This document shows positions 23,619 to 44,697 of a stretch of 64,000 nt of DNA, in pieces. The stretch lies in the sequence record OR449013. One strand, written 5' to 3'. The notes under the pieces were generated by a model, which was given only the letters and a program-made list of their open reading frames with translations, was not told where the DNA came from and made no database searches. The translations under genes were made by a program, and so were the position numbers. Every line of letters starts with the position of its first letter. Position 1 is the first letter of the stretch. This DNA is from Escherichia phage Mangalyan.

Positions 23619-24881
23619 CAGACTCCATTCATCACATTGAGTTTAGGACTGGATACCTCGGTCTTTGGTAGAATGATTACCAAAAACTACTTGAAAGTCC
23701 ACAAAATGGGTCTTGGTGAAGAACGTATTACACCTGTATTCCCTAAAGTGCTGTTCTTCCTGGAAGAGGGTGTTAACATGAACCCTGGGGATCCTAACTA
23801 TGATTTGAAACGATTAGCTCTGGAATGCTGTGCAGAACGTATCTACCCTGACTTCGTATCTGTACCACTAAATAGAAAAGTGACAGGCTCGACAGATGGC
23901 AAAGTAACGAGCATGGGTTGCCGGAGTTTTCTTAGCAAATATAATGACTTGGAAACAGGTGAGGAAAAATACCTTGGCAGATTCAACTTGGGTGTTGTTA
24001 GCCTTAACCTGCCAATGATTGCGGCAAAAGCTAAGACGGAAGGTGTTGATTTCTTTGCAGTTCTTGACGAATACTTGGATCTTGCATACGAGGCTCACCT
24101 TGTAAGGGTTAACCGTCTAAAAGGAACAAAGGCAGGGCAGAACCCCATCATGTGGTGTGAAGGCGCTCTTGCTCGCCTGGATCCTGAAGAAAGTATTGAT
24201 AAACTCTTCTATGACGGGTACGCTTCCATCAGCATTGGGTATATTGGTGTGTATGAAACCTGTCAGATTTTGGGCAGAGAGGGTGACAAGGCTTTAGCTC
24301 TTGGAATCCTTCAGCACATGAGAGATGCTTGTGAGCGATACAAGAAGGAAAGTAGACTAGCGTTTAGCTTGTACGGCACCCCTTCTGAGAGTCTATGCTA
24401 TAAAGCTGCAACCTGTCTGGATCGTGAATATCCTGAAGTGTTGAAGCACGAGCATGAATATCTCACCAACAGTTTCCATCAGCCAGTATGGATCAATAGC
24501 TCTCCTTTTGATAAGTGGGCGTATGAGGAAGGTTTTGCTATGATCTCCTCTGGTGGCAACATCGGATATGTAGAGACACCGAATCTGAAAAACAACTTAG
24601 ATGCTTTAGAGGCTCTTGTTGACTTCGGGTATAAACACATTATGTATTTTGGTATTAACCAACCTGTGGATAAATGTCTCAAGTGTGGTTTCTCTGGGGA
24701 GTTCAGTGCAACAGCTAAAGGCTTTGTATGCCCAGAGTGTGGAAACCATGAAGAGGGAACGATCAGTGTGATCAGACGTGTGTCTGGATACCTTTCCAGT
24801 CCTAACTCCCGTCCTTATAATAAAGGTAAGCAAGCGGAAGTTATCGAGCGAGTTAAGCACTATGGAAGTTGTAGTTGCTGA
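23619..24881 (+). CDS. nrdD: anaerobic ribonucleotide reductase NrdD, exon 2
   Basis: glycyl-radical motif RRVSGYL near C-terminus, zinc ribbon CLKCG ... CPECG; frame open from 23580; 5' boundary set by inferred 3' splice site. Confidence 0.8.
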   Translation, partial: QTPFITLSLGLDTSVFGRMITKNYLKVHKMGLGEERITPVFPKVLFFLEEGVNMNPGDPNYDLKRLALECCAERIYPDFVSVPLNRKVTGSTDGKVTSMGCRSFLSKYNDLETGEEKYLGRFNLGVVSLNLPMIAAKAKTEGVDFFAVLDEYLDLAYEAHLVRVNRLKGTKAGQNPIMWCEGALARLDPEESIDKLFYDGYASISIGYIGVYETCQILGREGDKALALGILQHMRDACERYKKESRLAFSLYGTPSESLCYKAATCLDREYPEVLKHEHEYLTNSFHQPVWINSSPFDKWAYEEGFAMISSGGNIGYVETPNLKNNLDALEALVDFGYKHIMYFGINQPVDKCLKCGFSGEFSATAKGFVCPECGNHEEGTISVIRRVSGYLSSPNSRPYNKGKQAEVIERVKHYGSCSC

Positions 24882-24945
24882 TACTTGACAAAAGCCACAA
24901 GGATGTGGCACCATACAGATGTTTAGGGAAGTTAGGAAACAAGAG

Positions 24946-26079
24946 ATGGCTAAATTATCGACAGAAGAGTTTATAGAGAAGGCGAAAATCATTCACGGTT
25001 ATAAATACAATTACAAGAAAACAGTGTACGTGGATTGCTATGCGAAGGTTTGCATTACCTGTCAAATCCATGGAGATTTTATGCAAGCACCTTGTCAACA
25101 CTTGCAAGGTCGTGGTTGTCCTTTTTGTGCAAAACTTTCTCGTGCTACAAAGTGTAATAAAGGTCTTAAATTTGTAGAAAGAGCCAAAGAAATCCATGGA
25201 GATAACTATGACTACTCTCTCGTATACTACAAGACTTGCAAAGATAAAGTAGAAATAATCTGCAATACTTGTGGAAATCACTTTACACAGACACCTGACA
25301 ATCATATAAATTTGAAAAGAGGTTGTCCAGTTTGCAAGGGGTCAAGAATCTCACAAAGCAAAACCAAACCTCATGAAAAGTGGGTTGAGGACATAGAGAA
25401 GAAAAATACTTATATTGAAATATTAGAAGAGATCACCACTGGGTGGAATAAAGTATTATGTCGTTGCAAAGTTTGCAACCACGAATGGTCAGCTACGCCT
25501 GTTATCCTTAAGCGTGGTCACGGCTGCCCCGGATGTGGCGGATCTATGAAAAAGACCACTGAAGAGTTTATCCAGGACGCTGTGGCTATCCACGGGAACA
25601 AGTATGATTACTCTAAAGTGAGGTATGTGAATTCACACATCAAGGTTACAATTGTTTGCACAGATCATGGAGATTTCTGTCAATCCCCTACCCAGCATTT
25701 AGGAGGGGGAGGGTGTCCTAAATGCACCAAAAGAGGATTTTTATCCCACGATTGTGGTAAACTTTACATTATGGTTGATGATCCGGAAGTGCCTACATTT
25801 ATGAAAATAGGTGTCAGTCATAATGAAAGTAAGCGAAGAGACCAGATACTTAAAAGTGCACAAAGATCTGGAGCTGGTATCTGCGATCTGTACATAGTGA
25901 AAACGTTGGAAGGATCAACTGAAAACATGCTGGCTGTAGAAAAATCTATGCACAAAGCCTTCAGTAAATATAAAATAAACTTCCCTGTAAAATTTGATGG
26001 TAGCACCGAATTCTTCTACTACAGGCCTGAGGTGTTCAGCACAGTGGAAGCAGCGTACAAAGAGATCTGCGGTAAATGA
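24946..26079 (+). CDS. GIY-YIG-like (T5orf172-type) domain protein with four N-terminal zinc-ribbon repeats; putative free-standing homing endonuclease
   Basis: four repeats of H-G-x-x-Y-x-Y ... I-x-C ... HG-x-F ... GCP-x-C; C-terminal LYIMVDDPEVPTFMKIGVS ... RR ... E resembles GIY-(10)-YIG spacing. Confidence 0.6.
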   Translation: MAKLSTEEFIEKAKIIHGYKYNYKKTVYVDCYAKVCITCQIHGDFMQAPCQHLQGRGCPFCAKLSRATKCNKGLKFVERAKEIHGDNYDYSLVYYKTCKDKVEIICNTCGNHFTQTPDNHINLKRGCPVCKGSRISQSKTKPHEKWVEDIEKKNTYIEILEEITTGWNKVLCRCKVCNHEWSATPVILKRGHGCPGCGGSMKKTTEEFIQDAVAIHGNKYDYSKVRYVNSHIKVTIVCTDHGDFCQSPTQHLGGGGCPKCTKRGFLSHDCGKLYIMVDDPEVPTFMKIGVSHNESKRRDQILKSAQRSGAGICDLYIVKTLEGSTENMLAVEKSMHKAFSKYKINFPVKFDGSTEFFYYRPEVFSTVEAAYKEICGK

Positions 26080-41667: not shown

Positions 41668-41757
41668 ATGAGAACATTGTCCGAAGTTTTAGTGGTGATC
41701 CTGATGATCATTACGTCCATAGCGGCTGTTGCCGGAATACTCACGGGTGGAACATGA
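41668..41757 (+). CDS. hydrophobic mini-protein (29 aa)
   Basis: below cutoff; ATG 8 nt after GGAG; MRTLSEVLVVILMIITSIAAVAGILTGGT. Confidence 0.35.
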   Translation: MRTLSEVLVVILMIITSIAAVAGILTGGT

Positions 41758-41966
41758 TAAACACACATGCATCTGAAGAGACATCCAAAGGAGTGACTAT
41801 ATGTCCCTTGGCTGAGCCAGTGAAAGAGGAAAACTTAGATTCTGAAGATTCTCCATCTTCGCTCCAGGTAGATCCTGAGGCTGATGACCTAACGTGGGAA
41901 GACATCGTAGACATCTGGTTCTCCATTATGCCTGAGCACGAAGAGTTCAGAGGTGGTAGACTATGA
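41754..41966 (+). CDS. hypothetical acidic protein (70 aa)
   Basis: ORF only; weak RBS. Confidence 0.3.
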   Translation: MINTHASEETSKGVTICPLAEPVKEENLDSEDSPSSLQVDPEADDLTWEDIVDIWFSIMPEHEEFRGGRL

Positions 41967-42087
41967 AGCACCGAGCCCACACAGGTTCCTCATGCTAAAG
42001 CATGGCCTGAAGAGGCAAACGTGTATAATTCCTGTGCATTAGAACGTATAAAACCCTGTTCACACTTTCATTCCCAGAGGAGATTTT

Positions 42088-42303
42088 ATGAAGATAGAGA
42101 TATTTGGTGGAGCTGACAACACTCGTGGCCTGATTTACCTTGAATTCGATGAATCATACCTGCCAGAGGTGTTAAATATGGACTCTGTTGCTGAGGCTTT
42201 GGGAGTAAGTCCTAAAGATCTCCACTCTGGTGCTGAGATTGATGGTTGGGAGGAGACCATGAACATCGATTTCAGTGAAGTAGGGGATGAACCACTGGAC
42301 TGA
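42088..42303 (+). CDS. small acidic protein (71 aa), MKIEI-type
   Basis: ATG after CAGAGGAG; last rightward gene. Confidence 0.55.
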   Translation: MKIEIFGGADNTRGLIYLEFDESYLPEVLNMDSVAEALGVSPKDLHSGAEIDGWEETMNIDFSEVGDEPLD

Positions 42304-42430
42304 CACACAATTAGTTGCCCGGCTAAAGTGCTGGGAGCACCCATAACACATCTTTCAACTAAATTTTCTACCACCACAATCACTTACCTCCCACACATGA
42401 CTGTTTGCTTGTTTAGTGAGCAGTCATGCC

Positions 42431-42458
42431 TTGACATTCTTGCCTATCCTGATAAAAT
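42431..42458 (+). promoter_or_regulatory. candidate sigma70-like promoter at entry to ORF-free zone
   Basis: TTGACA 42431-42436, 16-bp spacer, TAAAAT 42453-42458; no ORF downstream. Confidence 0.4.
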
Positions 42459-42654
42459 TAAGTTCTTCTCTTTTCTTTTACCGAGTAATTCGGGTTTTCT
42501 GTTCTCTTCGGTTTGAAGGGGTATGGAGATACACCTGAGTGAACAGGGTGAACAACCGAACCATTGGCTATGGCATTAGCATGGCGAAGCGGACGGGTGA
42601 CGAAAGAGGGGCCGGAGGACACCAGTCACTGCCATATGATATATGGGTGATAAC

Positions 42655-43193
42655 CTGAAGAGTCTGAATAAGTGTTTAAGTACCAGTCAGAGGAAAAGGT
42701 GAATGGTAGCCGAAGGGGGAGGGGGGTTACCTGCTTCTGTAAACATGCATCTGAAATACTACTTTAGATAACCTGAACCTGCCTTTCTGACAAATATTCC
42801 CTATTAAACTTGAATTATTTATAGAAAATACCACAACACCACTTAAGTCTTTGATTTTACACACAAATCTTACAGATATTAAACCTCTCTATTTAACATA
42901 CCTGTAACATATACTATACTCCACCTGTCTGATCAATTTCCCCAACTACATCCCCATATTTTCCCTGTCTGTACTACCCCTGCCCCGCCGGGAGTCCCGT
43001 CATATCTGGCTTTCCAGCAAATATCACACCCACAAATATCATCACCTGAAGAGGGTTTCATCCCATAATACATGCCTTACCTGAAGAGCGCTTCATACAC
43101 CACATAAATTTTTTAATTGACCCCCTCCCCGCCGCCGGAGAGGTTGGCTTTTCCCACACAGACCTGGAGAGTCAGCCAGAAATATCTGAAGAG
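42655..43193. repeat. four dispersed copies of about 15-bp motif CCTGAAGAG(G/C)G(T/C)TTCA
   Basis: CTGAAGAG at about 42655, 43046, 43081, 43186. Confidence 0.7.
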
Positions 43194-43750
43194 GGTCTAG
43201 TTCTGCCCTGTCATAAGCGGTAGCGACTGGAGTGCTGCTAGGCGGACGAAATGGGAATACTTCTCATTCTTATAACAATTCTCAAATATCGAGGCAGTGA
43301 GGCAAATTAATAGGTGAGGCCGTTCACACAGTGGCACAACATTTGCAACCTATCTTGTGGGATTGAATGAGAATACCTATCATTGTGAGAACTGTTATCA
43401 TTACGGGCAATTTAACATAATACCCATTATGCGCACCACTGGCGATACATACAGGGATTGATAACATGGGTTACTGTTTACGCACATAACAATTATATTT
43501 CTTACTATTTGTGTGGGATATAGTTAGCAGCCGATAGATTAGATATTAACCTGCAGACTTCTGACCGTCCAGACGTCTAAACGCCCACACACCAAGGATT
43601 ATACATACACTCCTGAATGTAAACAGGGCCGCAAAAATGCTACCATACAAGCTTGTAAATTTTTCATGCAGCACTTGACAAAGAGGAGAAAAACTTGTCT
43701 GACATAATGTGACCTAACTGACACAACATGACACTTTTACACACCTATTA

Positions 43751-43820
43751 GTTTACACACTGGATTGTTTACATTCCTGATTGTTCACATGCTAACCATT
43801 TACATGATTGACTGTTTACA
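43751..43820. repeat. iteron-like array: five copies of GTTTACA (variants GTTCACA, ATTTACA) at 15-16 bp spacing
   Basis: copies starting about 43751, 43767, 43783, 43798, 43814. Confidence 0.75.
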
Positions 43821-43833
43821 CACCGATAATCAG

Positions 43834-44083
43834 CCATGCCATTCGTTTGCATGACAATAATTATACATGACAATAATCGCACTGATCATAATTAGCATGA
43901 CATAATATAAAAGCAGGGCAACTATTAGCAGATCTATAGTTGCCTTGCTTGTTATGTCATGATTAACTAAATACAAGGCAACTATGATCTGATTAATAGT
44001 TTGCAGACAAACTATCACGGGGGTGATGGTTACTGCTTTTATATTATGTCGCGACTCCGTCGCGCCATGCCATTCGTTTGCAT
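43834..44083. repeat. direct 19-bp repeat CCATGCCATTCGTTTGCAT (two copies) flanking inverted repeats GGCAACTAT / ATAGTTGCC
   Basis: 19-mer at 43834-43852 and 44065-44083; palindrome arms at 43917-43925 / 43936-43944; second related palindrome about 43977-44005. Confidence 0.7.
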
Positions 44084-44697
44084 AGTTGCCTTATTGTTAC
44101 AGATAAAATAATTGTATTGTTAATTATTTCTTATCTTTCTATTAGTCATCTAATGATTTCAGTTAATATAGTAACGTACAGTAAACATTAGACGACTAAA
44201 GATTTCTATGCTTATGGTAACCTAACGTGACAATTCCAGACTGTTTACGAAAAATGTTGACACCTGGGCCGATTTATGTTATGCAGTTTACACGAATAAT
44301 TATTTTATGCAGGTATTGACTATTCCGTTATTCTATGGTTGGAATAAATGCTTAGCAGGCTATAGAATGGCGAGCGTACGTAAATTCTGAGATCTGGCGG
44401 CTATAGTTATACTCGATTTTTCACGTAGAAAACGCTTTTGTAGTTATGTAAGTGTATGACTTATAAAGTTGACAAGCTATTGAATATATGCATCAGGTTA
44501 AATTTTGTGCAAATGCTGCATTACGTGCAATTTTGGAAGGAAAAACGTGTAAAAATGGCCCTGCTACCACACAATGAAAAATTATGCAATAGTTATTTTA
44601 TATGTATGTTTGTACAGTGTGTGGGATTGATGGCTCGTCAATTATTCCACTTGCCAGGTAGGGCCGTTTATGGTAGGGGGAAGAGCAGACAAAAAGA

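Follow-up and report, generated by a model that had tools for sequence, protein, structure and literature searches.

The DNA that we analysed is a stretch of 64,000 nucleotides (hereafter the window) from Escherichia phage Mangalyan (sequence record OR449013) and is, judged by its sequence, a segment of a Vequintavirus genome, that is, of an rV5-like coliphage. A BLAST search with positions 42300–44450 returned 121 phage records at 90–99% identity, nearly all of them Escherichia phages of the genus Vequintavirus; the vequintaviruses matched are rV5-like myoviruses of about 137 kb. The window and its annotated relatives share one gene layout, in which small plus-strand genes stop at about 42303 and small minus-strand genes start at about 44734, and the roughly 2.1–2.4 kb between these points carries no consistently annotated gene in the annotated relatives. 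In rV5 the same block has been drawn as 'non-coding' since 2013, as in the genome paper (PMC3606486). A description of what this gene-free block contains was not found in the searchable literature. The first-pass annotation, which was made from the sequence of this DNA alone, had stated that the region lacks an open reading frame (ORF), and our analysis agrees: the longest ORFs reach at most 46 amino acids, and relatives differ by single-base indels inside them. A hidden protein gene was rejected on these grounds and because an 18-codon ORF at 42523 loses its ATG in several phages. A scan for tRNA and tmRNA genes found none.

Beyond the genus, few traces of this DNA were found. Positions 42400–43240 had no BLAST match in 5,426 E. 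coli genomes, and a search for distant DNA homologues among 50,697 phage records recovered the genus Vequintavirus alone. IMG/VR yielded two vequintavirus contigs only, the 15 other contigs with the 17-mer being single matches at about the chance expectation. Scanning metagenomes with a 20-mer of the invariant block described below returned five vequintavirus contigs and two isolated matches in high-GC bacterial contigs (L052, 5217–5237, and L054, 3454–3476). The latter are exact matches of 21–23 nt to GGGTGACGAAAGAGGGGCCGG with no similar flanks and no repeat array; their interpretation as CRISPR spacers or homologues was dropped, and we judged them to be chance or GC-rich repeat matches. Nineteen UNVERIFIED records deposited as 'Campylobacter phage' (MG0656xx, for example L013 and L024) are vequintaviruses that are 90–97% identical to this coliphage region, and they are probably mislabelled or contaminant assemblies. 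Elsewhere in the window (23637–26079), an ORF matches only the C-terminal part of the anaerobic ribonucleotide reductase NrdD (profile positions 300–715) and is directly followed by an HNH/homing-endonuclease ORF; this nrdD gene may be split or intron-interrupted. The annotation of the large terminase gene of rV5 similarly joins three pieces that surround an HNH endonuclease.

Several public phage records start or stop within the gene-free region. Record PP464953 (phage ECP2309) has an exact 459-bp repeat at both ends, which maps to window positions 43241–43699. The first base of MT884008 is the equivalent of 43241 (GGCGGACGAAATGGG...) and its last base is the one before, and for EdH4 and YN3 the calculated end position is 43699. 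The left boundary of this 459-bp direct terminal repeat lies between GCTGC(C/T)A and GGCGGACGAAATGGG, and the right boundary between ...GAGAAAAACTTGTC and TGACA. Published terminal repeats of vequintaviruses measure 458 and 459 bp (PMC6563267; PMC7471380). Three of the motif copies described below lie 196, 161 and 56 bp before the left boundary at 43241, all in one orientation (plus). On the virion chromosome the motif region therefore forms the final stretch of unique sequence, with the right repeat copy immediately behind it; in concatemers it comes immediately ahead of the left cut site. On the far side of the repeat, positions 43700–43830 form a hypervariable, iteron-like array that is free of the motif and is built from TGACA(C/T) and TGTTTACA(C) at 16-bp spacing, the regular 16-bp array of TGTTTACA(C) spanning 43736–43830. 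The right flank (43700–44100) also contains an 18-nt perfect inverted repeat (43899–43916 and 44033–44050) and a 20-nt exact direct repeat (at 43833 and 44064).

Four copies of a 15-bp motif had been reported in this region. We found the full pattern, the 16-mer CCTGAAGAG(G/C)G(T/C)TTCA, only at 43045–43060 and 43080–43095 (plus strand), even when two mismatches were allowed; the remaining two sites, 42654 (CCTGAAGAGtctgaat) and 43185 (TCTGAAGAGggtcta), hold the core alone, the former as CCTGAAGAG at 42654–42662 inside the invariant block. The core common to all sites is the 9-nt sequence (C/T)CTGAAGAG. Two upstream copies of this core had been missed: TCTGAAGAG at 41772–41780, inside the ORF at 41754–41966, and CCTGAAGAG at 42006 (42006–42014, ATGGCCTGAAGAGGC), which is identical to the terminus-proximal copy of phage UPEC06. 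Every copy of the cluster, from 41772 to 43185, is on the plus strand, and the spacings of the sites first reported are irregular (35, 105 and 391 bp). Over the whole window, we counted 12 occurrences of CTGAAGAG against 2.2 expected. Of these 12, four sit within plus-strand genes, where the frame CCT/ACT-GAA-GAG reads Glu-Glu; they probably reflect an unrelated coding effect. Any 9-mer with at least four copies within 41900–44500 arose in 3 of 2000 dinucleotide-preserving shuffles, and the clustering is therefore real rather than a product of chance. YCTRAAGAG does not occur within 43241–44600, that is, in the terminal repeat and right flank.

The second full copy (CCTGAAGAGCGCTTCA, 43080–43095) begins 35 bp after the first and contains the dyad TGAAG-N4-CTTCA, and dyad symmetry is present in both full copies. 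We therefore considered whether these two copies might be operators, overlapping a weak promoter (TTGCCT-16-CATAAT in most relatives) and bound by a phage transcription regulator. A 9/12 promoter match does overlap the first full copy in most relatives, and the copy at 42006 is followed after 9 nt by a TATAAT and after about 80 nt by the ORF at 42088–42303. Yet the part common to all copies is the asymmetric CCTGAAGAG and not the dyad, promoter matches of this quality occur here at background frequency (14 found against 9.4 expected), the –35 element of the window phage matches at only two of six positions, and no gene lies downstream before the genome end. We regard an operator role as very improbable.

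The two GC-rich boxes noted in the first-pass annotation at about 42971 and 43123 proved to be genuine and lie at 42976–42993 and 43120–43142. Box 1 and box 2 are identical at 13 of 15 positions in the window, which makes them copies of one element; in most relatives box 2 reads CCCCCTGCCCCGCCGG, closer still to box 1. Together with the motif, the boxes make up two plus-strand repeat units of about 90 bp each that share one architecture: GC box, TGGCTTT(T)CC, AAATATC and then CTGAAGAGGGT. Unit A (42972–43066) consists of the GC box CCCCTGCCCCGCCGGGAG (42976–42993), TGGCTTTCC, AAATATC, CCCACAAATATCA and the motif ACCTGAAGAGGGTTTCAT (43044–43061). Unit B (43116–43206) consists of the GC box CCCCCTCCCCGCCGCCGGAGAGG (43120–43142), TGGCTTTTCC, CCAGAAATATC and a degenerate motif, TCTGAAGAGGGTC (43185–43197). 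Box and motif are spaced by 70 bp in one of the units and by 66 bp in its counterpart, and the overall identity of units A and B is only about 51%. Many relatives have an insertion of 14–50 nt directly before GC box 2. The motif sites had also been assigned to a pyrimidine-rich tract. This description holds for 42750–43130, a plus-strand tract that is rich in C and poor in G (19–39% C and 5–15% G in 80-nt windows); it fails for 42500–42730, around the first motif site, which is instead rich in G and purines.

Upstream of these units, the promoter proposed at 42431–42458 is the best match in our scan, a sigma-70-type promoter (TTGACA-16-TAAAAT with an upstream TG, 11 of 12 matches) on the plus strand that reads toward the terminal repeat and whose hexamers are invariant in 18 phages. 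Behind it lies an almost invariant plus-strand block of about 265 nt (42459–42728), with a pyrimidine leader, a hairpin and T-run at 42481–42503 and a body rich in G and purines. The G-run GGGGGAGGGGGG (42715–42727, plus strand) is the inverse complement of the GC boxes and varies in length between phages. Promoter and block together (42398–42728) are almost invariant in 18–24 vequintaviruses, above the neighbouring genes. An earlier suggestion that the motif region might be transcribed as a non-coding RNA fits this block better, and the block holds only the first, partial motif copy; it is a separate feature and a good candidate for an undescribed structured phage RNA. The predicted fold of 42464–42745 has a z-score of –1.96 on the plus strand against –0.35 on the minus strand, and an RNAalifold model pairs the pyrimidine leader with the terminal GGGGGAGGGGGG run. 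Among 17 distinct sequences, which vary little, 8 of 12 substitution columns are unpaired in this model, three of the four paired ones keep pairing, and no two-sided change is seen. Rfam gave no family at gathering score in the whole window and chance-level matches only (E ≥3.4) for 42300–43800 when E-values up to 10 were admitted. A hammerhead ribozyme was considered for CUGAAGAG (compare the core CUGANGA) and rejected, as no GAAA or stem arrangement follows it and Rfam has no match.

We scored conservation across a set of 18 phages. Flanking genes score 0.93–0.97, and the promoter with the following roughly 265 nt (42398–42720) scores about 1.0, with a sharp drop at the G-run (42728). The C-rich tract scores 0.90–0.98, and within it the segment with the two full motif copies (42993–43117) reaches 0.97–1.0, above the flanking genes. 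The copies at 43045 and 43080 are almost invariant in the 18 vequintaviruses; the copy at 43185 is not kept as CTGAAGAG in most phages, which have CTGAA(C/T)AGG there. The conserved segment is bounded by indel hot spots, which we located at 43118–43123 before GC box 2, at 43198–43222 between unit B and the cut site, and right after the repeat. The second of these, a hypervariable spot between the repeat units and the terminus, carries palindromic inserts of up to about 50 nt in some relatives. One such palindromic insert before the cut site is GGGAGGCCCGAAGGGTCTAGCT...AGCTAGAGTCCTTG. Through ...CTTGTC and the TGACA that follows it the sequence is kept, and it then collapses into the variable iteron-like array. 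Positions 42729–42795 form a two-allele module, one version of which is shared by the window, A147 and LL12, and the other, about 20 nt longer, by the other 15 phages; this pattern suggests recombinational exchange right after the invariant block. The sequence of A116 looks chimeric upstream of window position 43121.

Through a neighbouring 139-aa gene we reached other phage groups. A7_1, LTH01 and UPEC06 are unclassified Vequintavirinae that form a second genus, and they show no BLAST similarity to the motif tract of the window, the sole match being a short piece inside the terminal repeat. From a shared word we predicted that the left end in these phages would fall between ...GCTGCCA and GGCACGG, and an exact 462-bp repeat of UPEC06 begins at that very base. 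The UPEC06 repeat ends in ...GTTTTGTC (...TTTTGTC at the cut), so that both junction contexts parallel those of the window. The cut-site contexts, GCTGCCA before a cut followed by GGC and TTGTC before the other cut, are thus common to the 459-bp repeat of Vequintavirus and the 462-bp repeat of UPEC06. All three phages have YCTRAAGAG 103–128 bp before the cut, and further copies lie at 434–610 bp. On the forward strand there are three copies per 9.4 kb against about 0.14 expected, and on the reverse strand there are none. A CC(C/T)YCCCGCC box stands 86 bp upstream of the proximal YCTRAAGAG (measured in UPEC06), with CCCAAATATATCT between box and motif, and a GGGGGAGGG(A/G)GAGGGGG run lies just inside the terminal repeat of the second genus. 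In Phapecoctavirus, the junction region has no comparable motif, despite a neighbouring gene at 89% identity.

The second genus has no promoter match of comparable strength upstream of the unit. No sigma-70 match above 10/12 reads into the motif tract in A7_1, and none reads into it in UPEC06; an apparent intrinsic terminator, GCACCC-loop-GGGTGC-TTTTT, precedes the unit in this genus (seen by eye; our scan tool did not list it). The unit therefore goes with the terminus and not with the Vequintavirus promoter, and the lack of a strong sigma-70 match that reads into the tract argues for a role at the level of DNA. These comparisons also bear on the possibility that the repeats have no specific function, being leftovers of local duplications in a recombination-prone end that look conserved only since the genus is young. 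The region is indeed full of indels and module swaps, units A and B have diverged to about half identity, and the third motif copy decays in most phages. Against this, the motif segment is conserved above the neighbouring genes, and a genus whose surrounding DNA BLAST can no longer align retains the same unit, identically ordered and spaced, at its terminal repeat. Pure drift is contradicted by this cross-genus conservation, and we give the absence of a specific function only a slim chance.

A different account places the function in RNA. The tract would then be the untranslated 3' part of the transcript that starts at 42431; its C-rich portion would act as a rut region that ends this transcript, and read-through from the genes upstream, before the terminal repeat. 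The RNA would be shaped or processed by the motif hairpins and by base pairing of the G-run with the GC boxes. The promoter is strong and invariant, all motif copies are oriented with transcription, GC box 2 has its exact complement in the G-run at 42715, and both full copies can form 5-bp hairpins, with a G-C pair in one and a G-U pair in the other. A C-rich, G-poor composition is known for rut sites. The tract combines such a composition (19–39% C and 5–15% G over about 380 nt) with an untranslated length of at least 80 nt and a promoter upstream, and the sole terminator-like site on the plus strand, intrinsic terminators included, is the weak 5-bp hairpin and T-run at 42481. The authors of the rV5 genome expected terminators between genes 163 and 164 and reported bidirectional ones only between genes 26 and 27 (PMC3606486). 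Yet a rut region needs a composition and not conserved words, whereas 42993–43117 is 97–100% conserved; the hairpins are short and weak; no Rfam family matches; and in the genus of A7_1 and UPEC06 the unit follows an apparent intrinsic terminator with no strong promoter match upstream. We consider the RNA-level account unlikely. A Rho-dependent stop in the C-rich tract may nevertheless exist in addition to, and compatibly with, a role of the repeats as DNA sites. Our search for literature on vequintavirus transcriptomes found nothing.

The region might instead contain an origin, with transcription from 42431 through the G-rich block forming a stable R-loop that ends at GGGGGAGGGGGG and primes DNA synthesis, and with the repeats serving as loading sites for an initiator or primase-helicase. 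A promoter without a gene behind it, followed by about 230 nt with a G-rich non-template strand, would suit this scheme, as would the exact stop of conservation at the G-run. The sequence of this run is similar to that of CSB II in mitochondria, where, as at ColE1, hybrids formed by G-rich transcripts persist. In T7, phiOL and phiOR are end-proximal promoters. The cumulative GC skew peaks here, and the replisome of rV5 is of the T7 type, its primase-helicase being like gp4 and its polymerase a PolA enzyme (PMC3606486). The turn of the skew coincides, however, with the switch in gene orientation, and the same is true of rV5 (PMC3606486). No DnaA box with up to one mismatch was found in the region, and a single match to the IHF consensus lies on the minus strand near 42856. 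The irregular motif spacings are not those of iterons, for which the 16-bp TGTTTACA array on the other side of the terminal repeat is the better candidate, and in UPEC06 the G-run sits inside the terminal repeat and not behind a promoter. An origin at the motif tract is improbable in our estimation; the hypervariable right flank (43700–44100) may be a replication origin. ORF 79 of rV5 is annotated as a GntR-like 'replication initiation protein'.

In a related model the host polymerase would transcribe 42398–42728 into a structured RNA that acts at the genome end together with the repeats. This RNA would either be an R-loop or primer, starting the DNA synthesis by which the terminal repeat is duplicated, or have a part in packaging. 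As partners, in DNA or RNA, it would have the YCTRAAGAG sites and those C-boxes that are complementary to the G-run. We think this model quite doubtful. The origin or R-loop and operator roles have less support than a role of the repeats as DNA sites.

The reading that we prefer, tentatively and at just short of an even chance, is that both the motif copies and the GC boxes act in cis, as DNA sites that serve terminase or the processing of the concatemer junction. Binding sites had been one of two options in the first-pass annotation, and we favour that option, as putative DNA sites, given the adjacency to the terminal repeat and the recurrence in a second genus: motifs and boxes directly precede 43241, and the same composite element is equally placed in a genus that has no promoter match of comparable strength upstream. 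In a phage of this type, with fixed ends and a short direct terminal repeat, the elements would belong to the concatemer-junction region. The order along the concatemer would be the last genes, the promoter at 42431, the invariant block, the C-rich tract with its two composite units (GC box, AAATATC and YCTRAAGAG), the cut site at 43240/43241, the 459-bp repeat and the cut site at 43699/43700. The small terminase subunit, or an accessory junction-binding protein, would recognise the oriented repeats and thereby direct the nuclease of terminase to the boundary close by, which would be the starting point of packaging and of repeat duplication. From what we observed, namely the sequences, their conservation and their position relative to mapped ends, we infer both protein binding and any packaging role. 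Against a packaging signal, the third motif copy, nearest to the cut, is the least conserved, Phapecoctavirus has no such motif, and in Vequintavirus the sites lie downstream of a strong promoter, which leaves some room for a role in RNA.

For these DNA sites we propose the role that is assigned in T7 and T3 to pacB, where binding occurs, and pacC, where cutting occurs, both of which adjoin the terminal repeat. In T7, the Pac sequence comprises PacB, bound by the small terminase gp18, and PacC, cut by the large terminase gp19 (PMC9860248). Sequences that confer specificity are found no further than 5% from the genome ends, and a pause of the polymerase at the junction serves to recruit terminase (PMC3276506). 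A literature search for the exact position of T7/T3 pacB found nothing. T7 and T3, which carry short repeats (SRL/SRR), resemble the present phage in having fixed ends and a short direct terminal repeat. T7 also has a gene-poor right end, where a promoter reads toward the repeat (phiOR, 549 bp upstream of the right repeat with only the tiny gene 19.5 between; 42431 here), and, over the final ~200 bp ahead of the repeat, short repeats in a set orientation. We counted 11 copies of CCTAAAG in nucleotides 1–340 of T7, and before its right repeat (39778) we found CATAAAGAG, CCTAAAGAT and CACCTAAAGAGGGTCT, with copies 78, 107 and 144 bp before the repeat. The T7 word (A)CCTAAAG(A) resembles (A)CCTGAAGAG(G) here, and CACCTAAAGAGGGTCT, 78 bp before the T7 repeat, is identical to window positions 43043–43058 at 14 of 16 bases; when two regions of about 1 kb are compared, a match this good is not in itself rare (roughly 0.15 by chance). 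To our knowledge, the function of the T7 short repeats themselves has not been established.

The two systems also differ. The T7 repeats fill the terminal repeat and right flank as well, whereas the motif is absent from both here, the right flank having the TGACA and TGTTTACA types instead. The promoter is of the host sigma-70 type here and of the phage-polymerase type in T7, the terminal repeat measures 459 bp against 160 bp, and in the T7 end sequences that we read we noticed neither GC boxes nor an AAATATC element. A tblastn comparison of T7 gp19 with the large-terminase locus of rV5 gave a best E-value of 3.3, that is, no detectable similarity. The organisation matches that of the T7 concatemer junction, homology is not supported by sequence, and the resemblance of the motifs may be convergent or coincidental. 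Several short oriented sites within about 200 bp of cleavage are also a feature of the R sites of lambda cosB, the pacL/pacR boxes of SPP1 and the pac site of P22; those phages make cohesive ends or headful cuts, whereas the ends here are exact direct terminal repeats. For the invariant block 42459–42728 alone, the pRNA of phi29 offers a parallel, since the block is a strongly promoted RNA candidate without a protein product that lies at the extreme end and would be transcribed toward it. It differs from pRNA in lacking an Rfam match and in phage group, genome-end chemistry and terminase system, and it is linked to packaging by position alone.

The terminal repeats and the 'non-coding' block of these phages have been published already; in the searchable literature we found no account of the repeat units, of the way in which they are linked to the cut site in two genera, of the shared cut-site contexts or of the invariant promoter block. 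Vequintaviruses are common coliphages of gut and sewage, and they are widely isolated with a view to therapy and to the biocontrol of E. coli O157. For them, a conserved composite element before a mapped end in two genera makes a specific candidate packaging signal available. Transducing particles or contained phages, of the sort built with T7 Pac, depend on a signal of this kind, as do the correct orientation and closure of genome assemblies and work on the formation of exact terminal repeats in phages outside the T7 group. The invariant promoter-driven block offers a separate lead toward a new phage RNA and, if the RNA that it may encode did act at the genome end, would point to an RNA-dependent step in end formation, undescribed for a myovirus.
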